Shown: positions 1-11,361 of the stretch, piece by piece
Position numbering within the stretch: the stretch's first letter is position 1
How the letters are laid out: every line of letters begins with the position of its first letter
Source: Myxococcales bacterium
GTDB lineage: Bacteria > Desulfobacterota > Binatia > HRBIN30
Direction of reading: 5' to 3'
Length of the DNA stretch: 11,361 bases
Assembly (NCBI GenBank): GCA_037445065.1
Contig: JBBILD010000037.1
Coordinates: forward strand, 1 to 11,361
Notes under the pieces: model-generated
Databases searched by the model: none
What the model saw: only the letters and a program-made list of their open reading frames with translations
Told to the model about the DNA's origin: nothing
Program-made: the position numbers and the translations under genes

Positions 1-993
1 GCGTTTACGGGTCAGCCACCGAACTGCCAGTTGAGCTTCCAGGTGACGCCGCAACCTGGGGATGCGCTGTCGTGTGTGAAGTACCTGGCGACGCTGCAGG
101 GGCAGACGGTACGGGTGCGGGCGCGGGTACAGACGCCGAGTGGGTTCATCCAGGACGAGCGGGATGTGCTGCTGCTCGACCTGCGGCCCACCGCCACACC
201 GACCTCGACCCGAACGCCGACCAGCACATTTACCCCGACGCCCACCTTCACGCCGACACATACTCCGACCAACACTCTGACTCCGACGCTAACTCCGACT
301 CCGACGCAGACTCCGACCTCAACCTTCACTCCGACACCGACGCCTGCGTTGCCGGTGATCGCGCCGAGCGTCGTGACACTGTACGCGGGTGTGAACGGGA
401 GCCCGAGCTGCGACGGATCCGCCCAGATCCTCACTGTGACCGGCAGCGCGCCACCGTTCACTTTGACCGCTACAGGCAATGCGTGCTTGTCTGCCACGGT
501 CTTGGCGAACTCGGGTGACACGGTCATCGTTCGTGCGGGCGACCAGGTGGGAACGTTCCAGGTGACGGTTACCGACGCCTTGGGCCGCACGGCGAATGCG
601 ACTTTGGTTCAGCAGGCTGTGAACGCTGCCTTCATGGACGTGGATGCGCTACCAAACGTCACGGACAACGGAGATGGGAGCTGCACTTTGGTGGTTGGTG
701 CATTGGTGACGGACTCTCTGGGTCGCGCGGTGGCAGACGGCGTGCCGGTTGCCTTTAGCTTGCAGCCACCGAGTGCGGGCGTGTCCATCACTAGCCCCGG
801 GCTCACGAACCGGGCCGCACCGTGCGACACTGGCACCCTGAACATTACGCCACAACCTGGTGACGCCTTGGCCTGCCTCAAGTACACCGCCTCGAACTCC
901 GGGAACACGGTTACCGTGCGTGCGGAGGTGCGAACCGGCAACGCAAGCACGTTGTCCGACACGCAGTCCATCCTGTTGCCCAATTGTCCCTGA
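1..993 (+). CDS. C-terminal part of a large secreted/surface protein with repeated Cys-containing Ig-like (Big-1/invasin-like) domains and a Thr/Pro-rich linker; 5' end lies outside the window
   Basis: The frame is open from base 1 (AFTGQPPNCQLSFQ...) to TGA at 991-993. It contains the Big-1-like motif 'ALVTDSLGRAVADGVPVAFS' and a duplicated motif TPQPGDAL(S/A)C(V/L)KY...TV(R/T)VRA.V.T. The sequence is rich in Thr, Val and Gly, consistent with beta strands. Confidence 0.8.
   Translation, partial: AFTGQPPNCQLSFQVTPQPGDALSCVKYLATLQGQTVRVRARVQTPSGFIQDERDVLLLDLRPTATPTSTRTPTSTFTPTPTFTPTHTPTNTLTPTLTPTPTQTPTSTFTPTPTPALPVIAPSVVTLYAGVNGSPSCDGSAQILTVTGSAPPFTLTATGNACLSATVLANSGDTVIVRAGDQVGTFQVTVTDALGRTANATLVQQAVNAAFMDVDALPNVTDNGDGSCTLVVGALVTDSLGRAVADGVPVAFSLQPPSAGVSITSPGLTNRAAPCDTGTLNITPQPGDALACLKYTASNSGNTVTVRAEVRTGNASTLSDTQSILLPNCP
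187..345 (+). repeat. Low-complexity Thr/Pro linker (TPTxT repeats)
   Basis: Translates as PTATPTSTRTPTSTFTPTPTFTPTHTPTNTLTPTLTPTPTQTPTSTFTPTPTP, with degenerate ACN-CCG periodicity in the DNA. Confidence 0.9.
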
Positions 994-1012
994 CGGCTAG
1001 CCCATGGGCCGG

Positions 1013-1046
1013 ACGAGGGGTGGCTTCGGCCACCCCTCGTGCTTTT
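1013..1046 (+). terminator. Rho-independent terminator
   Basis: Perfect 12-bp stem ACGAGGGGTGGC (1013-1024) / GCCACCCCTCGT (1029-1040) with a cUUCGg tetraloop, followed by GCTTTT, about 20 nt after the stop codon. Confidence 0.85.
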
Positions 1047-1182
1047 GACATCTTGCCTCTGTCACGCCCCCTGGTAGCCGCGCGGAGCAGTCTCGCAAAC
1101 TGTTCTCAGCGTGCCGGGCGTAGCGCATTCTCAGCCTCGCCCAGGTGGCCAGCAGCCACGGGCCCTGGCCAGTGCCGCTGGC

Positions 1183-2304
1183 TTACGCAGCGACTTCTGG
1201 CCACAGTTTTTTCCCGCGACGCAGTTCGTGGCGGGCGAGGGCGAGTTCGATGAGGGCGCTGACAAGCTCGGGCAAAGCAAGCCCGGAGAGTTCCCAAAGT
1301 CGCGGGTACATGCTGATGGAGGTAAAGCCCGGGATGGTGTTGATCTCGTTTACGAAGAGCGCCCCGGTTTTGCGTTCCAAGAAGAAGTCCACGCGCGCCA
1401 TGCCGTAACACTGTAAGGTGCGAAAGGCTTGCACTGCTAAGTCGCGAACGTGCTCTGCCGTCTCGCGGTCCAGCTCTGCTGGTGCGATGAGTTCCGCGCC
1501 CGCCGGATCCAGGTATTTGGCTGCGTACGAGTAGAAGCCCCCACGGGCCCGGATCTCGCCGGGAGCGGATGCGCGCACCTCGCTGCCTCCCAGCACCGAA
1601 CATTCGATCTCGCGGGCCTCCAGCCCTTGCTCGATTACCACCTTGCTGTCGTAGGCGAGGGCCGCCTCGATGGCGGCTCCGAGTTCGGACAACGCCTCCA
1701 CCTTGCTCACGCCCACCGAGGAGCCGAGCCGGGCGGGTTTCACGAAAAGCGGCAGAGGGAGTGCCCGAGCCCGCTCGAGGACAGAGCGGGCGTCAGCGCG
1801 CCATTCCCATTCGTGGCAAGTCGCAAACGGCACGACCGGGAGACCAGCTTCGCGCAGCAGGCGCTTTTGCACGTCTTTATCCATCCCCAGCGCTGAACCC
1901 AAGACGTCCGCACCCGCGTACGGCACCCCGAGAAGTTCAAGGAGCCCTTGCACCGTGCCGTCTTCCCCGTACGAGCCATGCAGGACGGGGAAAACGACGT
2001 CAATGGGAGGAGTGGCTGGGGAGCCACTGTCCAAATGGTAGAGCCGCGGCGGCTCTCTGCCCGGTACAAAGGCGCATGGTCGTGACACCTCGGGCACGGC
2101 TGGCAGGCGCTCCTGAGTTAGCCGTTCGAAGGCAGATGGCTCGAAGACGTGCCAGGTGCCAGAGCGAGCGATGCCCAGCAACACAGGCTCGAAGCGAGCG
2201 CGGTCGAGCGCGGCGAATACGGTTGCCGCCGAACGGACGGAAATTTCATGCTCGGCTGAGCGGCCGCCAAAAAGGAGCGCCACCACCATTTTGCCTCTGT
2301 TCAT
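1183..2304 (-). CDS. ddl: D-alanine--D-alanine ligase (long, DdlA-type)
   Basis: Motifs ALLFGGRSAEHEISVRSA, VFPVLHGSYGEDGTVQGLLE, MDKDVQK, FVKPARLGSSVGVSKV, REIECSVLG, omega loop FYSYAAKY, GMARVDFF and NEINTIPGFTSISMYP. Likely start is ATG at 2304 (MNRGKM), alternatively 2289; the ORF-track start at 2514 is an over-extension. Confidence 0.97.
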   Translation of the reverse strand: MNRGKMVVALLFGGRSAEHEISVRSAATVFAALDRARFEPVLLGIARSGTWHVFEPSAFERLTQERLPAVPEVSRPCAFVPGREPPRLYHLDSGSPATPPIDVVFPVLHGSYGEDGTVQGLLELLGVPYAGADVLGSALGMDKDVQKRLLREAGLPVVPFATCHEWEWRADARSVLERARALPLPLFVKPARLGSSVGVSKVEALSELGAAIEAALAYDSKVVIEQGLEAREIECSVLGGSEVRASAPGEIRARGGFYSYAAKYLDPAGAELIAPAELDRETAEHVRDLAVQAFRTLQCYGMARVDFFLERKTGALFVNEINTIPGFTSISMYPRLWELSGLALPELVSALIELALARHELRRGKKLWPEVAA

Positions 2305-2431
2305 GGCCGAGCGCCTACCACAATCGAGGCGCTCGCGCATTGGCGAAAGGGACGGTTGCTGCGAACAAAGCACACGCTCCGATGGCGGGCTGCCATTCGC
2401 CAGCGTTTTACAATCGTGGGAACGGAGGGGC

Positions 2432-2471
2432 TTGCAAAAGAGGAAGGGTCCGTGGATATATAGGGTCCACG
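2432..2471 (+). promoter_or_regulatory. Putative sigma70-type promoter for the leader/XRE transcript, overlapped by an inverted repeat
   Basis: TTGCAA at 2432-2437 is followed by the locally AT-rich GATATATA (2455-2462). The inverted repeat CGTGGA-N9-TCCACG (2451-2471) brackets this -10 region. The -10 match is imperfect. Confidence 0.45.
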
Positions 2472-2503
2472 CGAGAAGCGGAGAACAAAGGATAGTCGAG
2501 AAC

Positions 2504-2686
2504 ATGAAGATCAAGGGTCACACAGGCGATCGGTCGCGAGGGGCGCAGAAGGTGCACGCGGTTCGTGTGCCAGTCTTCCAAGTGCTCCGTGGCCGTTTCA
2601 TTGCCAGCGAGTGTACGTGTCCGGTGATGACGTGCACGGACTGGAACGCGGTCGCCGGTGGCCCGCGCGAGGAGGAGGTCCCGTAG
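2504..2686 (+). CDS. Putative leader peptide (uORF), 60 aa
   Basis: ATG 2504 (preceded by AAGGA) to TAG 2686: MKIKGHTGDRSRGAQKVHAVRVPVFQVLRGRFIASECTCPVMTCTDWNAVAGGPREEEVP. It ends 32 nt before a terminator and contains the antiterminator strand. Confidence 0.6.
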   Translation: MKIKGHTGDRSRGAQKVHAVRVPVFQVLRGRFIASECTCPVMTCTDWNAVAGGPREEEVP

Positions 2687-2732
2687 AGATTCTTAGCTAC
2701 TGAACTCGATCCGAAACGCGAAGGGCCACCGG
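2655..2732 (+). promoter_or_regulatory. Antiterminator hairpin of a transcription attenuator
   Basis: CCGGTGGCCC (2655-2664) is the exact reverse complement of GGGCCACCGG (2723-2732) in the 5' arm of the terminator. Nested pairs extend it: CGCG 2666-2669/2717-2720, GGA 2671-2673/TCC 2710-2712, GTAG 2683-2686/CTAC 2697-2700. Confidence 0.75.
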
Positions 2733-2761
2733 AGGCAGTCTCCGGTGGCCCTTTCGTTTTT
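2719..2761 (+). terminator. Intrinsic terminator (attenuator) upstream of the XRE gene
   Basis: Perfect 14-bp stem AAGGGCCACCGGAG (2721-2734) / CTCCGGTGGCCCTT (2740-2753), followed by TCGTTTTT. Confidence 0.9.
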
Positions 2762-2826
2762 GGGCAAAGCCAATGGTTGTTTCAGTGGGCAGACGCAAGA
2801 TCCGTTTGGAGAAAGGAGGAGGAGCT

Positions 2827-3084
2827 ATGGAACGGATCGATCCAAAGGTGTTCGCGGAACGGTTGCGCCAGGTCGTAAACGACGAACCGAAAGCCTTCGC
2901 TTACGACATCGGAATCAGCTTGTCGGCGCTGTATAATTATCTCAATGGTCGTGTCCCGGCGACGGACGTCCTGTTTCGCATCGCTCGGTACACGGGGCGC
3001 CCGATGGAATGGTTTCTCTGCGCCGACGAGGCGCAAGCAATGCAGCCGACGGGTGCGGCAACTCCTCAATCTGTGGCGGCCTAG
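2827..3084 (+). CDS. Small XRE/Cro-C1-type helix-turn-helix transcriptional regulator, 85 aa
   Basis: Strong SD (AAGGAGGAGGAG) before ATG 2827. The sequence FAERLRQVV...KAFAYDIGISLSALYNYLNGRVPATDVLFRIARYTGRPMEWFL matches the HTH_XRE pattern. Confidence 0.9.
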   Translation: MERIDPKVFAERLRQVVNDEPKAFAYDIGISLSALYNYLNGRVPATDVLFRIARYTGRPMEWFLCADEAQAMQPTGAATPQSVAA

Positions 3085-3215
3085 CCTCGCCCAATCAGCC
3101 GTCCGCAGCCGCGTAGAAAGTGTGCACGGCCGAATGCGAGGGTGAGGGAAACATCGGGCGCGCCACGCGAGGTGACGATCATAGTCCGGGCCAACTTGGC
3201 AGGAAGGAAAGGCAA

Positions 3216-3419
3216 ATGGAATCGAGCATACTTTTGAATTCGCTGGTTCCGCCCATCGTTCGCTTTGGTGGGCAGGAACTCTTAGGAATCGCTGCACTGG
3301 TGGCGGCGTTTGTTCCGCTCGCCGTGCTGCTCAAAGCTAGGTGGACGCCCCTCCCGCGCTGCTCCGCGCGAGTCCCCTCCCTCCGCGTAGTCGGAGCAGT
3401 GAAATCGCGTCCCGCCTGA
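3216..3419 (+). CDS. Small single-pass membrane protein, 67 aa
   Basis: Purine-rich SD AGGAAGGAAAGG before ATG 3216. One hydrophobic helix (LLGIAALVAAFVPLAVLL) is followed by a basic tail, and a hairpin lies directly after the stop. Confidence 0.65.
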   Translation: MESSILLNSLVPPIVRFGGQELLGIAALVAAFVPLAVLLKARWTPLPRCSARVPSLRVVGAVKSRPA

Positions 3420-3427
3420 AGCCGAAG

Positions 3428-3460
3428 TTCTGGGGCGGGCCGCCCCGGCCCGCCTCAGAA
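3428..3460. terminator. GC-rich hairpin between convergent genes (probable terminator)
   Basis: TTCTGGGGCGGGCCG (3428-3442) / CGGCCCGCCTCAGAA (3446-3460): 15 bp with one G-U pair. There is no clear U tract, and it overlaps the stop codon of the minus-strand gene. Confidence 0.55.
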
Positions 3461-4156
3461 CCCGGCTCGATAGCGGAACACCCGGCCGCGGCGACTCGTG
3501 CTGGACAGTTCGAGGAACAAGAGCCCCCGCATGACCATGGCGAAGTACACGAAGAGGGGCGTGAGCAGGGCAGGAACGATGCTGGCGACACCCTGCACCG
3601 GTAAGGACGCGATAGCCCAGATCAGTGCTGCGGCCGCGCAATTCGCCGGTAACCATTCGATCCAATTGTTCGCCATGAACTGGTAGCTCTCGCCCAGAAG
3701 GGCCAACGCGTGCGAGCGGCCAATGTAGATCAGCTCCGGCACAGCGTTGAAGAACACAAACGCAGCGAGCAAGAGGCAAAGCCAAATCACCTCCCCCTGT
3801 GGCAACTGGAGTACCGCGGGAGCCAGCAGCAAGGAAGCAAGCCAAGCCACGAAAGACAGGGCCAGCACGTCCCAAAGGTACACGCCAAAGCTACGCTGGA
3901 AATCTGCCCAGTTCACCCGCCCGCTCCGTACCATCGTCTCGATCAAGTACAGGAACGAGCTGGCGCAAGCTGCAAACACCAGGCTGGTGAGAATTCCCGC
4001 GAAGATCCCTAGTGGCCCAGCCAAGAAGGCAGTGAGGCGCAAGAGACCCGAATAGACGAAGGTGGTGAACAACACCGGCCAGTTCCGCAACGCCAAGAGG
4101 GCAGCGCGCGTAAACACGCGCCGATAGAGGTCCCAAGTCACGATCAGCCAGTCCAC
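3455..4156 (-). CDS. Hypothetical multi-pass integral membrane protein (~233 aa)
   Basis: About six hydrophobic segments with typical codon usage. GTG start at 4156 is preceded by GGAG (the ORF track uses TTG 4180). It lies directly downstream of the DMT gene on the same strand. Confidence 0.85.
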   Translation of the reverse strand: MDWLIVTWDLYRRVFTRAALLALRNWPVLFTTFVYSGLLRLTAFLAGPLGIFAGILTSLVFAACASSFLYLIETMVRSGRVNWADFQRSFGVYLWDVLALSFVAWLASLLLAPAVLQLPQGEVIWLCLLLAAFVFFNAVPELIYIGRSHALALLGESYQFMANNWIEWLPANCAAAALIWAIASLPVQGVASIVPALLTPLFVYFAMVMRGLLFLELSSTSRRGRVFRYRAGF

Positions 4157-4204
4157 TGCCGCTCCGCGGTTCGCGCGCAATCTAGTGAAGCGCTGGAGTG
4201 AGCG

Positions 4205-5146
4205 TCAACGGAAGACCTCGTTCGGATTCGGGAGAGGGGCGCTGATGGTTGCCCCGCTGGCCGGGTGGCGTGCGCTTTCACGCGCGATCATGGCGACCCC
4301 GGCAATGACGAGAGCGGTGGCGATCAAACGGGTAGCGGTCAGACTCTCCCCGAGCAGCACGGCCGCAAAGATCAGGTTGAAGACCGGGATCGCACTCAGT
4401 AAAACCGCCAGCACGCTCACCTCGAGACACTGCTGGGCGCGCGCGTAGACACCGTAAACGCCGACCGTGCAGAACAGCACGAGGAGAACGAGGAAGCCCC
4501 AGGCCGGTGCTTGTGACTCCGAGAAGCGCGCGAAGGGGATGGTGAACGGCGCACTGATCCAGAACCCCACGGAAAAAATGCCAGCGAGCCTTTGCCAGAG
4601 GCCGGCGTGTGCGGCCGCGCGCCGCTGGCTCACGGCGTACACCGACCAGGCAACGGCTGCCAGCAGTACGGCTGCGTTTCCCAGCATGTGGTTCGAACGC
4701 CACACTTCGTTCCAGCGAATGCCCTCGCTGGCCACCAGGATGACGCCCGCAAGGGTGAGCGCCGAGCCGATCAGGCGATGAGGCGTGAGGTGTTCGGCGA
4801 GCAGCCAGCGAGCGAGCAGAATCGTGACCACCGGTTCCGCATTGACCAGCAGGCCCGCGACGACCGCCTCTGTGTACTGGATGCCGTAGGTGTACAGCAG
4901 AAAATCCGCTGCTAACGCGGTGCCGCCAATCCAGGTCCACCGATCCCACTGACTCCGAGCCGCTCGACCTTGCGCAAAAACGCGGAACAACAAGGCCGCG
5001 ATTCCGAGCCGCAAGAACACGACGGCCCCGGGGCTGGCGGCAGCAAGCGCCCCTTTGGTCGCGGTCGGGCCGAGACCCCAGAGCGCTGCAGCAACGAATG
5101 CGAGCAGAAAACCCTCGGCACGAGCCGCGTCTGAGAGCCGGTGCAC
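4205..5146 (-). CDS. EamA/DMT (drug/metabolite transporter) family protein
   Basis: Ten predicted TM helices in two repeats, with motifs 'AAALWG', 'FLRLGIA', 'LLVNAEPVVTILLARWLLAEHLT...GVILV' and 'IPVFNLIFAAVLLGESLT...GVAMI'. Confidence 0.93.
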   Translation of the reverse strand: MHRLSDAARAEGFLLAFVAAALWGLGPTATKGALAAASPGAVVFLRLGIAALLFRVFAQGRAARSQWDRWTWIGGTALAADFLLYTYGIQYTEAVVAGLLVNAEPVVTILLARWLLAEHLTPHRLIGSALTLAGVILVASEGIRWNEVWRSNHMLGNAAVLLAAVAWSVYAVSQRRAAAHAGLWQRLAGIFSVGFWISAPFTIPFARFSESQAPAWGFLVLLVLFCTVGVYGVYARAQQCLEVSVLAVLLSAIPVFNLIFAAVLLGESLTATRLIATALVIAGVAMIARESARHPASGATISAPLPNPNEVFR

Positions 5147-5490
5147 GCCCCGGCCTCAAGCAGTCCGTGGCGCCGAGTACCAGGGGCCTGCGCGCAATGA
5201 GCCGTAGGGGTGTTACAGGCGGACAAGGAAAAAATCCTGCGCCGGCGCATCTCGACAATGCTTGTTACTGGAGGGAGGGCCGGCTGTGGGTGGTCGTTCG
5301 TTGGTTCTTTGGTGCCCTTGGGAGGAGCGGGGCTGTTTTCTGCTCGGCCCGTGGTAAAGCGGCCGCGGGCTGCTGCTCGGGTACGCGGGAAGCGAGGCAA
5401 TCGGTTGTGCCAGGAATGGTTACGGGCAGCCTGTGAGAAGCAAGGTGGCCAAAGGGCCTGATACCGCTTCGTTGGGCGTCCCGAGTAGGA

Positions 5491-5682
5491 TCAGGGTAAC
5501 GTTTGTGCGGCACCAGGGGTTGCTGACCAGGTAACCACAAGAGCCGAAGATTGAGGACCGAGAAAGGTACCGTTGCCCACCTCGAGCGCTCTTGTCAGCT
5601 CGTTCGTGCAGCCCCGGGCCATGGTGGTCTCAGTGGCAACATCGCTCTCGACGTCGGCAATCGCCGGCGCGACCAGATTGGG
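5491..5682 (-). pseudogene. Highly degenerate FG-GAP repeat gene relic
   Basis: PNLVAPAIADVESDVATETTMARGCTNELTRALEVGNGTFLGPQSSA has the spacing of an FG-GAP blade (AIADVxxD...GNGTF..PQS). It ends in AAQTL, as does the neighbouring FG-GAP gene. Confidence 0.45.
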
Positions 5683-5954
5683 TGAGTTGGCTGCTGGAGT
5701 TGGAGAAAGCCGAAGAAGAGGTTGCAACGCTTGCGCTTGTTGGGCAAAGACGCACACCCGTTAGGGCTGGAAACGGTCCGCATCTCTGCCCAGGTCCGCG
5801 TCACCGACGCCCACAGCAAGATGGGTAGTCCCTTCAACTTAGGCCCTCCTGCGGTGCGCGCTGCCAACAGCGGTCCGCTTGCTGCGAACAGCGGAAGGGC
5901 GGTCTGGGGTTGGCCCGGTACCCAGGGGCAAATCGCGCTCGCCTCTGTTCACAA

Positions 5955-6032
5955 CGGAGAGCCTCGGTCGTCCCTCGGGGTCAAGGTCGGCGGTCTTAAA
6001 GACCCCGGGAAGGCCGAGGCGCGGCGTCTCCG
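5955..6032 (+). other. Long imperfect rod-like hairpin in intergenic DNA (candidate structured RNA)
   Basis: Nested stems: CGGAGA/TCTCCG, GCCTCGGTC/GGCCGAGGC, TCCC/GGGA, GGGGTC/GACCCC and AAGGTC/GGTCTT. Confidence 0.45.
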
Positions 6033-6154
6033 CGCGGCAACACCAACCGAACGCCCGGAGGGTCGTCGCGCAGTGTCAAAAGCGCCACTCGCTCCAGTGC
6101 CTGCGAGGCGCAGGCCGCACGCGTGCGCCGGACCGCTCCCCGATCGTAAGGAGT

Positions 6155-8625
6155 TCAATGAGCCCCGGCGCCGGCCACGGACAACGTTTGCGCGGCGCTC
6201 GACGTCGGGCAGCCACCAAGGGCATTGTTGACTCCATGGACGAGTTCGTCGACGGTCACCTGCCCATCCGCACTTTCGTCGGCAAGTACACAAGTGGCAA
6301 CACTCGCCTCTCCGAGGGCGATGTTCACGGAACGAATCAGTTCATGGATTTCCACCGTCCCATCGCCATCGCAATCAGTCGTGCAAAGCCGTGCTCGGCG
6401 AATCGGGGAGGCCAGTAACACCGAAATGTGATCGTAAAAATCAGCCACCACGGCATCGAGCGCCCCGTCGCCGTTCAGGTCTTCGAGTAAAAAGGTGCTG
6501 GGGTTGGAGGCGCCGGCGGCAAAGGACTGCGGCGGCCCAAACGTTCCGTCGCCGCGGCCAGCCAGCACCGAAAGCGCCCTGTCTTCCAGCCTCACCAGAT
6601 CGAGGTGGCCATCACCCGTTAGTTCGCCAAGGCCCAGGTCAGTCCCTCCGAGAGTGGCTGAAATCCACGGTCCGAAGGTACCATCACCGCGACCGAGCAA
6701 CGCCCCGTCCTTGTCAATCAAATCGAGATTGAGATCACCGTTCACGTCACCCAACGCAACAGAGCTCGGATCCGCAACGACCGACACCGGCTCCGCGAAC
6801 GTGCCATCACCTTTTCCGAACAGGACCACAACGTGCTCAAAGCTGCCCGTCACCACGTCGGGCCTTCTGTCCCGGTTCAGGTCTGCCACCGCTAACGTCT
6901 GTGTGGGCTCTTGCAACGGAGTCTCGATTGGCGGTTCGAATGTGCCGTCTCCGTTTCCACGAAGTACCGACACCGCGCCCGTGTGGGGAAGTGAGCTTAC
7001 GCGAGTATTGGTGACCACGTCGAGGTGACCGTCATCGTCGAAATCAGCAACCGAAAGGCCGCCGATCGACCCAACTCCCGCGGGAAACGTTCGCCGGGGC
7101 CCGAGCGCGCCATCTCCCGTGCCGAGCAGCACCACAATGTGTCTATCCTCTCTGTCGGTTACCAGAACATCAGGCCAACCGTCCTCGTTCACGTCGGCCA
7201 CCGCCTTGGCTTTGAGTGCCCCATTCCCAGCTTCAATGACCGACCCCAGTGCGAACGTGCCATCGCCAGCACCCAACAGCACGCGCACCTCGCCGGCTTA
7301 GGTGGCTACCACCAGGTCAGGCCGACGATCCCGGTTCATATCGGCTGAAGCCATGCTGGTCACAGGCAGCTTCATGCTCACCGGTGCCACGAAGGTGCCG
7401 TCACCACGGCCAAAGAACACAAACCCCCCGCTCACCAGGTCCAAAACGCCATCTGAATCGAGGTCGGCAAGAGCAAGCAACTCACCACCGGCGCCATCAA
7501 AAACCTGGCGGATTGCGAAGCCGCCCTCGCCGTCACCTAGGAGCACGAAGACTCGTTCGTCCGAGAAGCGACCGCTGGCGACGACGTCACCGTTACCGTC
7601 ACCGTCCACGTCCCCCACCGTTACCCCGGCAAACAAAGCGGAGTTTGGCGGTACGGTGAAGGTGGCCGGGGTGCGAAACGAGCCGTCCCCAGTCCCCAGC
7701 AAGACAGACAGGCCTGCCCCCGCAACGACAATGTCAGGCACGTTGTCGTGGTTGAAGTCATGAATCGTCGCCTTCTCGGCGCTCGTTGGGAGCGGTAGGG
7801 TCGTCGGCGCTCCGAAGGTCCCGTCCCCATTCCCAAGCAAAATCGAGAGATACTGCCAGTTTACCGCAACGAGGTCCAGAGCACCGTCCGCGTTGAGGTC
7901 AGCGATGCGTACCGTGTGGGGCGCCTGTTGCACCGAGACGTCCATCGGTGGGACTACGGAGAAAGTGCGCGCCGGATCTACAGTCCCATCTCCACGGCCT
8001 AAGAGTACAGAAGCCGTCTCGAGATACGTGTCGGCCGTCACGAGGTCCGGGACACCGTCGTGATTTACATCCGCCACGGTCACATCGCCAAACCTTGGGA
8101 CCGCGTCTAGGCGCGTGGCCTGCTCCATCCCAACGAAGCCGCCGTCGCCAGTGCCTAAGAACACCTGTACGGCCCCTCCACCCCAATCCCGCCGAGTCTT
8201 TCCACCCGAACCCAGTTGGCCACACCGTCCAGGTTCAGGTCTGCGAGCGTTTGCGAAGAAATCAACGCGAATGGTAAGGCAAACCGTGGTCCGGGAACAA
8301 ACTTCCCGTCGCCGCGCCCGAACAACACAAAGTGGCTTTGACTGAGCAGGTCAATGCGGCCGTCTCCGTTGAAGTCGGCTATCCCCACGCTGGCCTTGAC
8401 ATCCAGCCCAGGATATTGAGCTTGCCCGGCAAACAAGTCGCGAACCTCCCGAAGAGTCAGAGCGGTTGCATCTCTTGATAGAAAACGTCCCCGGAGATTT
8501 GCGCTCGACACGCTGCCGCTCGCATTCCCCACGGCAAGAAGAGCGACCAGGATGAGTGCGCCCCCCGGCACAAGCACTCGATGTACTGCGACACGGTCTG
8601 TAGGAGGAACGAGAGGGATCTTCAT
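6155..8625 (-). pseudogene. Secreted FG-GAP/VCBS-repeat beta-propeller protein with C-terminal dockerin-like domain (~823 aa if repaired), disrupted by one frameshift and one nonsense codon
   Basis: ATG 8625 overlaps the upstream stop (ATGA). A signal-peptide-like segment GGALILVALLAVGNASG is followed by more than ten D(F/L/V)NxDGxxD...LLGxGDGTF repeats running across three track ORFs. There is a frameshift at about 8170-8215, and an in-frame TAA at 7298-7300 within PDLVVAT*AGEVRVLLGAGDG. Confidence 0.88.
6206..6385 (-). other. Cys-flanked dockerin-like (duplicated EF-hand-like) C-terminal domain
   Basis: CTTDCDGDGTVEIHELIRSVNIALG...CVLADESADGQVTVDELVHGVNNALGGCP contains two DxxxDGxVxxxEL...VN.ALG repeats. 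Confidence 0.85.
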
Positions 8626-10300
8626 TGCGCATCCCCCTGTTGGCACTTTGGGGGCGTGGTGTTGATAAAGACTCTGTATCCGTCGCACCGCCCCTGGAAG
8701 AGGTCGAGACAGTCGTCACCGTTGATGTCCAGGAAAGCGAAATCATGCACGGGTTCCCCTGTCTGAAAGTTCTGGTCTTGCGTTGCCAGCGGCCAGGGAT
8801 CTTGTAACGGCGAGCAGTCCGTATTGACCGCGCACGCTTCACCGGTCACCGCGCATTCCCCACCTTGACACAGATTTGTGGCCACAACGTTGCGCAGGAG
8901 GGCGAAGGTACAATGGGGCGACAGCGGGTTCTCGTTACTCGGCCGAGCGCATGAGGTGGCGAAATCCACATCGACGTCGGCAACGGCTAAATCCATATAT
9001 CCATCGCCGTCGATGTCGGTTATTTGGACGTTTCCGCCGAAAACCTGGGTGCGCTGGCTTGGCGCCGTGTAAGCGCGGTATGAAGTTGGCCCCGCGGCGA
9101 GGTAGACCTTGTCCTCGTGGTCGTCCACGACGTAGAAATCCAGCCGTCCGTCGTTGTTCAGATTCCCAGTGGTGAACATGTAAGGCTCTTTCAGATCGAG
9201 GATATCCTGGGTGCTGGATGCGCCCCTCCAAGTAAAGTGAGCGTCGCCACTGTTGCGCAGGATGAATACCCCGGTGCCGTCGGTGCTCGAGAGCACGTTC
9301 GGCTTCCACGGGAAGACGGAGTCGAGGGTGGATATCTTGATGATACCCATCGTGTTGGTCGTTCCACTCTGGCGAAGGTTGCGAATTTCGGCCGCCGTTC
9401 CGAACGCAACGTTGGCGTATAAACCGAGCCGGTTCACGGGCGACTGACTCTCGTCAACAAACCTGCCGGTCGCGTCTGCCCCTATGATCTTGTTCATCAA
9501 CAACACGTTCTTGTCGGACCGGATCGTTGTGTCTGCTTCGCCAGCGCAGGCTTTAGCGTAGTTAGAGAAGTAAAGATCGAGGTCGCCGTCCTGATCCACG
9601 TCACCGCCCGCAACCGCGCAGAAGCGCTTGGCCGGCACTGAAAACCCTCCCGGCGTCGGAGACACCGGGGGCAGCCAATTATCTGCGAGGGTGAATCCCT
9701 GCCAGGCCGAGCAACGCCCCCCTTGTTGCGGTAGAAAGTCGGGTTTTCGTTGCACGTGTTGGCAATGGCCAGGTCCGCAGTGCCATCCCGCTTCAGGTCG
9801 GCTACAAACACGTCGCGCGCATTGGTGTGCGCCGGCGGTGCAGGCTCGCTGCTCGAAGCAGCCACAAACTTGCTGCTGCTGGCGTCGGTCAGCACCCCGT
9901 TCCGATTGAGAAGAAGCAACGCCGCTCTTGGGCCATTCGTTGAAGAGGGCTCCTTGCGCACAACGATGATGTCCTGCCATCCGTCGCCATCGAAGTCCCC
10001 TACCGCCATGTCCTTTTCCTCCGGGTCCCCCGCGGGAACACTGGCCAACACGAGGCGCCTTGCCGTCTCGTCCCGGAAGGTCACCCAGGCAGGGGTGGGT
10101 GGCGGCGGGCCAGGGGTCGGTGTGGGCTCACTCCAACTCACTCGGAGCACCGGCCGATTCTCGGGCGTGGGGTCTTCACCGCTGCGAGTGCGGATCCGAT
10201 CGCCCCGGTGCTCGGCTGCCACCCGCAACACCGGGGTTATTTGCCCGCTAACTCTGAGCCCACCTAACTGCCAACCTAGCCGCCGCCGTGCGGTGTACAT
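8622..10300 (-). pseudogene. FG-GAP/VCBS-repeat protein (~559 aa if repaired) split by a frameshift, with a probably truncated N-terminus
   Basis: SD GGGAGG before ATG 10300. FG-GAP motifs GDFDGDGWQD and ADLKRDGTAD are in the 9497..10300 frame up to FYRNKGG. GDVDQDGDLD, GNLNNDGRLD, DIDGDGYMD and DINGDDCLD are in the 8622..9980 frame. The switch falls at or near a G6 run (9717-9722). Confidence 0.85.
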
Positions 10301-10417
10301 GGCCGTGTCCTCCCCTCCCTTTGATTGGCTTTTCTCACCGTGCTCTGTGCGGACTGCTCGACCTTCCGTTTCTGCACCGAACCTGCCTTCTTAAACGCTC
10401 GCGACGGCCAAAAAGTT

Positions 10418-10442
10418 CCCAGAAAATGCATTTTTTTCTGGG
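10418..10442. promoter_or_regulatory. AT-rich palindrome upstream of the FG-GAP operon (possible operator)
   Basis: CCCAGAAAA-N7-TTTTCTGGG containing the perfect palindrome AAAATGCATTTT (10423-10434), about 120 nt upstream of ATG 10300. Confidence 0.4.
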
Positions 10443-11060
10443 CCGGCTGCTTGGGCTTTGCTGCCGGAGTTGTATGCATTGCCTCTGCGCGGGAGCCTGC
10501 CTGCACAAACGCCCCAGGGGCTAGGGGTTGCTTCTACCCGACGTGCCGGGTTGGCTGCCCATCCTGGAACGGCCAGTGCGAGGCGGGCCACGGGGGCCAA
10601 TGAACGATGCAGGGCTTTCCGGGCAGCGTCGAGCAACTCGGTGGTGTAGGCGAGGCTCTTTTGCCCTCGGACACGACTCTTTGCGGGCGTTTCCCACCGG
10701 AGTGGCGCCTCGTCGGGCACGGTCTGCGAAAGCAGGAGTGCGCTGCACTGCACAGCACAGCGCGCTGTGGGTTTCCCAGTCGCGGCACAGCACCGCGGTG
10801 GGGGCGGCTCGGTACAAGCGCTGCGCGCCGGCTCCCGGGCGGCCCGCTGTTGCCACAGGGGCCCGGTGCCAACATCTCCACGCGCGCAGAGTGGCCTGTG
10901 ATGCGCCGTGGCCTCAACACGGCCCGCATTAAGGGGTGGCACGGGTCATCGCGAGCCGGCCCGCATGCAAAGGAGAGCGATAAGTGAGACCCGCCGTGGT
11001 TGCTCGTCTTCCAGTCACCGGCGATCACCGCGCAACGGTGGTTCCCTGGAACGCCCATGA

Positions 11061-11361
11061 GTGCACGTGTGCGAGCGAGAGAAATCGCGCGCTCTGGTGG
11101 GCGAGGAAGGCGCGGGCGGCAAGCCGACTTTGCCAGAACAGGTGGTCCATCTCGACCCGATCGGAGCTTCGACCGACTTCGCCGTGCTCGCGCGCGAGCG
11201 CGCCTTGTTCTGGAGCTATCGGGCCGACCCTGAGGTGTTGGGACTGCTCGATCGCGCCCACCAGCGGCTGCGCAAAAAGCCCATTCCCGTGCTTGATCTC
11301 AGTGGGCTCACCGATGCCTGGTCGTTCTTGCGTGCCGGCCGCCCTGCGGCCACGGTGTTGA
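11061..11361 (+). pseudogene. C-terminal fragment of an M28-family (Zn) peptidase-like gene, running off the right edge
   Basis: Manual translation of the frame after TGA 11058-11060: VHVCEREKSRALVGEEGAGGKPTLPEQVVHLDPIGASTDFAVLARERALFWSYRADPEVLGLLDRAHQRLRKKPIPVLDLSGLTDAWSFLRAGRPAATVL. This matches the M28 pattern GSR...vxNLDxiG...(S/T)DxxxFxxxGxPa. It is absent from the ORF track because no stop lies within the window. Confidence 0.6.

Follow-up and report, generated by a model that had tools for sequence, protein, structure and literature searches.

What sets the expression of a small DNA-binding regulator whose gene lies behind an open reading frame and an intrinsic transcription terminator? 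The question is raised by an 11,361-nucleotide (nt) stretch of DNA, called the window throughout, that makes up positions 1 to 11,361 of the forward strand of contig JBBILD010000037.1 (GenBank assembly GCA_037445065.1) from an organism titled Myxococcales bacterium and placed by GTDB in the class Binatia (HRBIN30). In this window, a 60-codon upstream open reading frame (uORF) and a terminator precede the gene for an 85-amino-acid (aa) XRE-type helix-turn-helix (HTH) protein. We propose that the region between promoter and HTH gene is probably a conserved transcription-attenuating leader that is mediated by ribosomes, so that translation of the uORF's end would keep the HTH gene OFF, and stalled or lagging ribosomes would turn it ON. 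The proposal is carried by a comparison of 66 leaders, which reveals two predicted and mutually exclusive helices with three-way covariation, a uORF whose frame, start and stop are conserved, a near-neutral peptide and a single copy of the element placed before the HTH gene. The parts of the presumed switch are the following, in window coordinates.

2504..2686, + strand: uORF for a leader peptide, 60 codons followed by TAG (2684-2686), from translation; frame, start and stop are kept in 66 leaders
2655..2664, + strand: 5' strand of the antiterminator (region 2), in uORF codons 51-54; an exact copy of the terminator 3' arm, supported by covariation
2655..2732, + strand: whole predicted antiterminator, 78 nt, enclosing the uORF stop codon, from the fold of 2651-2734
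2720..2761, + strand: intrinsic terminator, with the 5' arm core at 2723-2732, the 3' arm core at 2742-2751 and the T tract at 2752-2761 (TTTCGTTTTT), from stem prediction and covariation
2815..2824, + strand: Shine-Dalgarno (SD) sequence of the HTH gene, GGAGGAGGAG; a strong SD is kept in the relatives
2827..3084, + strand: gene for the 85-aa XRE-type HTH protein, the presumed regulated gene, assigned by Pfam HTH_3

Two predicted helices share one strand

An initial annotation, made from the letters of the DNA, had described a 60-codon uORF, a terminator and an HTH gene with a strong SD, and all three lie where it had put them. Its 14-bp terminator with a U tract stands as regards the hairpin and its tail; the stem is longer than claimed, with 16 pairs over 2720-2754, 10 of them G-C, and the tail CGTTTTTGGG. 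The annotation had also seen that the last codons of the uORF repeat part of the terminator 3' arm, and a search with the 10-mer CCGGTGGCCC bears this out: it lies at 2655-2664 (+) and 2742-2751 (+), with its complement in the terminator 5' arm at 2723-2732. These are the only three matches in the 11.4-kb window and all are in the leader (0.10 expected; none of 200 shuffles reaches three). When 2651-2734, the RNA present before the terminator 3' arm is made, was folded alone, the nested antiterminator of about 78 nt that had been suggested was reproduced, with 2655-2664 paired to 2723-2732 plus inner helices, at -39.2 kcal/mol (z -3.27). The terminator hairpin of the window alone reaches -30.8 kcal/mol. 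In the relatives, mean single-sequence fold energies are -38.1 kcal/mol for the antiterminator (66 relatives) and -27.1 kcal/mol for the terminator. Given that the antiterminator persists in the minimum free energy (MFE) structure of the complete leader in some relatives, the choice between the two folds is expected to be kinetic.

The relatives were recognised with a covariance model of the leader (R1; 150 positions, built from 53 leader 3' parts), whose structure is the terminator only. Once identical upstream regions were removed, 73 distinct HTH loci remained, of which 72 were searched, L016 being left out as nearly identical to L005. Full-length matches at E <= 3e-8 were found at 66 of the 72 loci. 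The 66-sequence leader alignment, like the model, was fitted to the terminator structure only. In it, the upstream copy, the terminator 5' arm and the terminator 3' arm co-vary three ways. Written in that order, the covariant sets include CCGGTGGCC / GGCCACCGG / CCGGTGGCC, CCGGCGG / CCGCCGG / CCGGCGG, CCCAGCGGCC / GGCCGCTGGG / CCCAGCGGCC and TTCGGTGGCT / AGCCACCGAA / TTCGGTGGCT. The conservation of the 10-nt complementarity had been named in the initial annotation as a test of its proposal, and in the relatives the upstream copy indeed changes together with both arms.

The outer helix of the predicted antiterminator is standard-paired in 92.5% of 791 cells and carries compensatory (both-side) changes at 8 of its 12 pairs (72 cells), and pairing falls to 27-52% when the partner is slid by 1-3 columns. 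On each of five measures, all 500 column shuffles fall short of what was observed; this control ignores relatedness, and the shuffle results are not to be taken as probabilities. For the terminator, 96.8% of cells are paired and compensatory changes occur at 6 of 12 pairs across the 66 sequences. RNAalifold, applied to antiterminator-only segments that were aligned with MAFFT and given no structure model, recovered the same helix with 11 pairs, 7 of them compensatory. We regard the comparative case for covariation as strong despite the uncorrected relatedness, given the slid controls and the several independent pair types. At one locus (L069) a change in the shared 5' arm improves an antiterminator pair and breaks a terminator pair. 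The inner antiterminator helices were considered as well and rejected as covarying elements: they are seen in single-sequence folds and are absent from the consensus pairs, and the claim is limited to the outer helix.

A separate observation concerns the RNA directly 5' of the antiterminator strand, where a small hairpin (window 2640-2654; columns 51-66 of alignment A4) takes the form ACCC-loop-GGGT in many relatives, with the variants CGCCA/TGGCG and CGTC/GACG. It may be a polymerase pause hairpin.

The uORF is kept as a frame

The frame of the uORF is open upstream as far as 2156, and in the alignment it is the ATG at 2504 that matches the conserved start of the relatives. That the uORF should be conserved was a further test named in the initial annotation, and it is passed in every leader: frame 0 is open for at least 60 codons upstream of the conserved stop in 66/66 leaders; for the remaining two frames, even a length of 45 open codons is reached in no more than 23/66 and 25/66. 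In frame 0, the Gly-Gly codons that sit in the antiterminator strand are followed after 24-36 nt by the stop, which falls inside the antiterminator loop in all 66 leaders (30/66 for each of the other frames). The stop codons themselves interchange (TAA 28, TAG 24, TGA 14). Start codons follow the same frame, as 102 ATGs are found 45-67 codons upstream of the stop in frame 0 (63 of the 66 loci), compared with 7 and 4 in the other frames; the three loci that have no in-frame ATG use GTG/TTG or a shorter frame. Across the 66 leaders the uORF measures 40-67 codons, mostly 50-65. Since the antiterminator 5' strand is within the uORF and the stop codon is in the antiterminator loop throughout, the position of a ribosome could choose the fold. 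In the window, the final uORF codons and the stop fall within the inner helices and loop of the antiterminator.

The encoded peptide is a different matter. Over 89 sequence pairs, the ratio of nonsynonymous to synonymous change (pN/pS) is 0.84 in frame and 0.98 and 0.95 in the shifted frames, and the in-frame value is biased downward, if anything, by the alignment of the sequences as peptides. The peptides end in an apparent motif, T-A/K-K-I-N-P followed by four residues and Gly-Gly. One subfamily retains its nucleotides AAG..ACCCG although it reads them in another frame (KRTRIW instead of KINP), and Gly-Gly becomes Ser-Gly exactly where the RNA helix co-varies, which argues that the constraint is on the RNA plus an open frame rather than on the peptide. 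A functional small protein or an arrest peptide was rejected on the pN/pS of 0.84 and on the lack of a match in Pfam or NCBIfam. An open frame that is correctly started and stopped and has a near-neutral product therefore points to a regulatory leader peptide and not to a small protein or an aptamer. A rare ATT codon as a programmed slow site was tried as a candidate too and rejected, with ATT accounting for 31% of the Ile codons in the long ORFs of the genome.

Promoter and spacer

Common to the relatives is a promoter-like block, TTGCA..N17-19..TGGCTAAAT, that lies upstream of the uORF and with which one segment of the window aligns.

2432..2461, + strand: promoter-like block, with TTGCAA at 2432-2437, an 18-nt spacer and ATATAT at 2456-2461

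A consensus scan for sigma-70-like sites did not call this segment of the window. From the alignment, we place the presumed transcription start at the conserved block upstream of the uORF. The interval between terminator and HTH gene was viewed in a 30-locus alignment, in which no conserved promoter-like block was seen. At 9 of the 66 loci, the interval from the terminator 3' arm to the HTH ATG is as short as 33-44 nt, even with T tract and SD counted in, and read-through would be almost the only way for the HTH gene to be transcribed there. The window has 65 nt between the T tract and the HTH start, and no sigma-70-like site was called in them by the same scan, which also misses the upstream block.

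The spacer has a further feature in relatives and not in the window. Among loci L004-L027, many carry an extra GC-rich hairpin (for example CCGC-ATGGG-GCGG) together with a GACCGGCCGGCG motif in this read-through part.

Ribosomes as the likely sensor

What would the two helices respond to? The leader combines a conserved short ORF, an intrinsic terminator, an exclusive antiterminator and an overlap of the ORF with the switch strand, the sequence features by which ribosome-mediated attenuators are recognised. In the mechanism that we propose, the uORF of about 60 codons is likely translated and carries the antiterminator 5' strand that competes with the intrinsic terminator. Ribosomes over the last ~10 codons would melt the antiterminator and leave the 5' arm free, the terminator would form and the XRE gene would be OFF. 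If instead a ribosome stalled upstream, lagged behind the polymerase or never started, the antiterminator would form first and give read-through (ON). The induced HTH protein would then act on DNA, and an autoregulation like that of whiB7 might be possible through a palindrome next to the leader promoter (see below). We infer that ribosome position is the sensor, with translation setting the switch OFF and stalling setting it ON, and that the switch answers to translation stress in general or to a shortage of amino acids, and not to any single amino acid.

A distinguishing property of the proposed mechanism is its default state. A conserved "region 1", the anti-antiterminator that would sequester region 2, was looked for in the 5' 110 nt of the leaders and rejected: duplexes between region 2 and these 110 nt are no better than those with shuffled 5' parts (mean z +0.21). 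The best region 2 duplex has -15.6 kcal/mol with the 5' 110 nt and -13.9 kcal/mol with the middle part. Region 2 has a mean predicted pairing probability of 0.73 in the partial transcript, its partners being scattered along the leader; in the MFE of the window itself, 2514-2527 pairs with it. Without a conserved region 1, an untranslated leader would be ON by default, unlike trp, and the element would report whether translation keeps pace with transcription.

Several points weigh against a ribosome-mediated attenuator, the missing region 1 being one of them. The support comes from sequence comparison throughout; a search for sequencing runs that contain the stretch listed nine of DNA type and none of RNA. 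The geometry is weakest at the uORF stop, since the antiterminator 5' strand ends 18-30 nt upstream of it; going by the usual size of a ribosome footprint, we estimate that this strand would be out of reach of a single ribosome standing there. Blocking would therefore need a ribosome over codons ~46-56, a trailing ribosome or steric exclusion. The distance from strand to stop (24-36 nt) is about one ribosome footprint, and the next ribosome in a queue at the stop would come to lie on the antiterminator strand, which fits a sensor of ribosome traffic. The SD-like signal of the uORF, AAGGA at 2488-2492, is weak (-4.5 kcal/mol, against -2.4 kcal/mol in the control). Runs of a regulatory codon are missing from the uORFs of the 66 leaders. 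The helices account only in part for the conserved nucleotides AAG..ACCCG and GGAGG. Finally, a promoter could be hidden in the 65-nt spacer of the window. The initial annotation had held that a start of the HTH gene's own, downstream of the terminator, would speak against its proposal; this is answered by the nine relatives, which leave no room for one, and less fully by the window.

The conserved nucleotides lead to one of two alternatives that fare about equally. AAG..ACCCG stands before the antiterminator strand and GGAGG after it, and since the two helices do not account for them, the switch could be real and yet be set by a ligand, as in a riboswitch, or by an RNA-binding protein or small RNA acting on these sites, with the frame incidental or secondary. 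The weak SD of the uORF would suit such a reading. We nevertheless find it unlikely, as the signatures of frame, start and stop cannot be explained unless the uORF is translated and, unlike an aptamer, the leader shows poor sequence conservation over its 5' ~110 nt. The window has no match in Rfam at E <= 1, and five relatives have only matches below threshold, on the terminator hairpin. Most riboswitch classes control several operons, while the leader has one copy per genome.

The composition of the uORF raises the other alternative, an attenuator tuned to particular amino acids such as histidine or threonine, in the style of the his and thr leaders, and not to general translation stress. Relative to a proxy proteome, the first 20 codons are enriched in His (4.0x), Thr (2.0x), Asn (2.0x) and Gln (1.9x), and a ribosome stalled within them would not occupy the antiterminator strand. 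The first 45 nt (window 2507-2551 and its counterparts in relatives) are simply rendered A/C-rich and G/T-poor by these codons, with A 26.5, C 35.6, G 25.5 and T 12.4%, and a start of this composition favours an unstructured site for ribosome loading, which would also fit a sensor of ribosome traffic. The fourfold enrichment of His, which at first sight tells against a general signal, may reflect no more than such an initiation region. The A/C-rich start could be a region for ribosome loading, a His/Thr sensor or a Rho loading site. With the His and Thr residues scattered and not in runs, and with a regulator rather than a biosynthetic operon as the regulated gene, tuning to particular amino acids appears improbable. 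An ordinary small-protein gene with a constitutive terminator, followed by an HTH gene with its own promoter and preceded by nothing more than a coincidental copy of the 10-mer, would suit a conserved ORF with a terminator directly behind it and the 65 nt between T tract and HTH start in the window, yet it is very hard to reconcile with a near-neutral peptide that matches neither Pfam nor NCBIfam, an upstream copy that co-varies with the terminator 5' arm, nine loci with only 33-44 nt for a promoter and a 10-mer confined to the leader within the window.

Comparison with known attenuators

The closest parallel to a ribosome-mediated switch in front of a transcription factor is actinobacterial whiB7/wblC, to whose logic the initial annotation had likened the locus; the likeness agrees with the published model as set out in PMC10274678. 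There, the transcription factor gene is preceded by a distal promoter, a uORF, a terminator that is rho-independent and an antiterminator that competes with it; efficient translation of the uORF leads to termination, translation stress to the antiterminator and read-through, and the factor activates its own promoter in positive autoregulation. The same text describes whiB7 uORFs as significantly enriched in Ala. The Binatia leader also has a uORF and an antiterminator/terminator pair before a transcription factor gene, as well as a conserved palindrome by the promoter. It differs in its target, which is an XRE-type HTH protein and not a WhiB-like Fe-S protein, and in its host, Candidatus Binatia and not Actinobacteria; the two are unrelated in sequence, and the uORF is enriched in Ala by no more than 1.22x, which sets the leader apart from the whiB7 group. 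By analogy, we class it as convergent with whiB7, sharing the logic and not the membership.

The classical amino-acid leaders have 14-32 codons with runs of the cognate codon, and pairing of regions 1 and 2 gives termination when translation is absent. The Binatia leader shares with them a leader ORF, exclusive helices and ribosome position as the presumed selector. Its uORF is longer (40-67 codons), has neither codon runs nor a supported region 1, and stops downstream, not upstream, of the antiterminator 5' strand. Given also that the target is an HTH regulator, it does not belong with trp, his, leu or thr. The mechanism of these leaders (trp, his, leu, thr, pheA), based on a leader ORF and exclusive helices, is summarised in PMC10274678. 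In a third design, the bmrB leader of bmrCD in B. subtilis, a leader ORF with a terminator/antiterminator responds to slowed translation (PMC4191407). Leaders of this type control resistance transporters or rRNA methylases in Firmicutes, whereas the Binatia leader precedes the gene of a DNA-binding regulator in an uncultured lineage.

The initial annotation had known of no attenuated XRE regulator of this kind. A literature search, which took in full text and had subscription-only papers outside its reach, likewise met with no account of this leader or of any XRE regulator under attenuation; one Deinococcus paper mentions XRE and leader peptides, as unrelated items. While the mechanism is textbook, the leader family before an XRE regulator seems to be undescribed. 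It constitutes a well-supported cis-regulatory RNA family absent from Rfam, with 66 distinct sequences that co-vary three ways, and it comes from a lineage that is uncultured and spread over the globe. It would also mean that the design of a uORF attenuator before a transcription factor, as in actinobacterial whiB7, has arisen again on an unrelated family of regulators. With a long uORF, no codon runs and no anti-antiterminator, the leader lends itself cleanly to the role of a candidate generic sensor that monitors the coupling of transcription and translation.

The HTH protein and the distribution of the leader

The product of the HTH gene scores 28.2 bits against Pfam HTH_3 (cut-off 23; E 1.9e-6), which places it in the XRE/HTH_3 family. 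Searches of PDB and NCBIfam with the protein returned no specific relative, and its 679 relatives in the database bear generic names. Residues 1-64 are almost invariant among orthologues.

The tail after residue 64 is variable and ends in Ala-Ala in 31 of 65 complete genes; in the window, the C-terminus (3070-3084) reads SVAA. An Ala-Ala tail recalls the protease tags of the ssrA/ClgR type.

How far does the leader follow this gene? A single-copy HTH orthologue with 63-80% identity is present in 38 of 41 related genomes, from four families of one order. A scan with one genome per species gave 65 HTH loci, most of them from metagenome-assembled genomes titled Candidatus Binatia or "Deltaproteobacteria bacterium". 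Besides the 66 full-length R1 matches, three further loci (L064, L087 and L076) matched weakly, for a total of 69 of 72, and no match was found at L092, L094 and L095; L094 and L095 have Saccharibacteria and Patescibacteria titles and more distant HTH genes. The genome of the window itself holds one full-length copy (E 1.9e-13), its other four matches being terminator-only or at E >= 0.3. In a sample of the phylum, R1 matched at E <= 1e-5 in 4 of 151 genomes, namely the window's own genome, one genome of the same order and two others. The two others were rejected as leaders, being plain terminators behind unrelated genes with no HTH gene. In a sample of the class, the HTH gene occurs in 30 of 121 genomes, concentrated in six families. 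The distribution in these samples indicates that leader and gene travel together within part of Binatia.

A palindrome next to the promoter and the neighbouring ddl gene

Upstream of the leader promoter lie two further features that bear on what the HTH protein might do.

2407..2420, no strand assigned: degenerate copy of the palindrome TCCACG-NN-CGTGGA, with 4 mismatches, read from the sequence; candidate operator by presumed function
1183..2304, - strand: ddl, D-alanine--D-alanine ligase (Pfam Dala_Dala_lig_C E 9e-70, Dala_Dala_lig_N E 7.6e-32); context, outside the switch

With at most 3 mismatches in 12 positions, the palindrome is present in 60 of the 66 leaders, compared with 9.5% of shuffles. 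Its centre is 17-18 nt before the TTGNNN (TTGCA) hexamer in 53 of these 60, and in the relatives it lies ~75-100 nt upstream of the uORF ATG. On these grounds it is a candidate operator, possibly for the HTH protein itself. In 45 of the 73 distinct loci, the gene divergent to the uORF-HTH unit is ddl, with ~500 nt between the start codons, so that the palindrome lies in a shared control region. This neighbourhood hints that the HTH regulator may act on cell-wall synthesis. Furthermore, the regulator occurs almost universally in these families, as a single copy and beside ddl, and the leader may therefore point to a stress regulon, one that could be mapped without cultures, through metatranscriptomes or heterologous reporters.

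Could the palindrome itself reveal such a regulon? Genome-wide counts in five relatives, each given with its reversed-pattern control, were 23/5, 39/4, 12/3, 23/10 and 5/10, an excess in four of the five. The recurrent matches lie inside identical multi-copy insertion sequence (IS)/transposase sequences, and the list for the window's own genome is noise; a palindrome regulon was therefore rejected as a candidate. In two genomes (G026 and G039; loci L118-L129), multi-copy IS/transposase sequences with identical flanks carry near-perfect copies of the 14-nt palindrome, which inflate the counts.

A more far-reaching scenario, which we find rather doubtful and put forward tentatively, is that of an independent whiB7-like master switch of Binatia. 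In it, the 60-codon uORF, loaded with polysomes, would report whether ribosomes keep up with RNA polymerase. Uncoupling of translation from transcription would release a short-lived XRE protein with a degron-like Ala-Ala tail, and this protein would bind the palindrome, amplify its own expression and adjust ddl. If true, this would link the status of translation to peptidoglycan synthesis.

Other genes in the window

The window begins with an ORF (1-993, +) that runs off its start and encodes long Thr/Pro-rich linkers and repeated domains; a Pfam search with it gave nothing at E <= 0.01. On the other side, convergent to the HTH gene, lies a gene for a predicted membrane protein of 241 aa (3455-4180, -), for which a Pfam search gave no match. 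Of the 95 loci fetched, with duplicates counted, 28 have a relative of this membrane protein next to the HTH gene.

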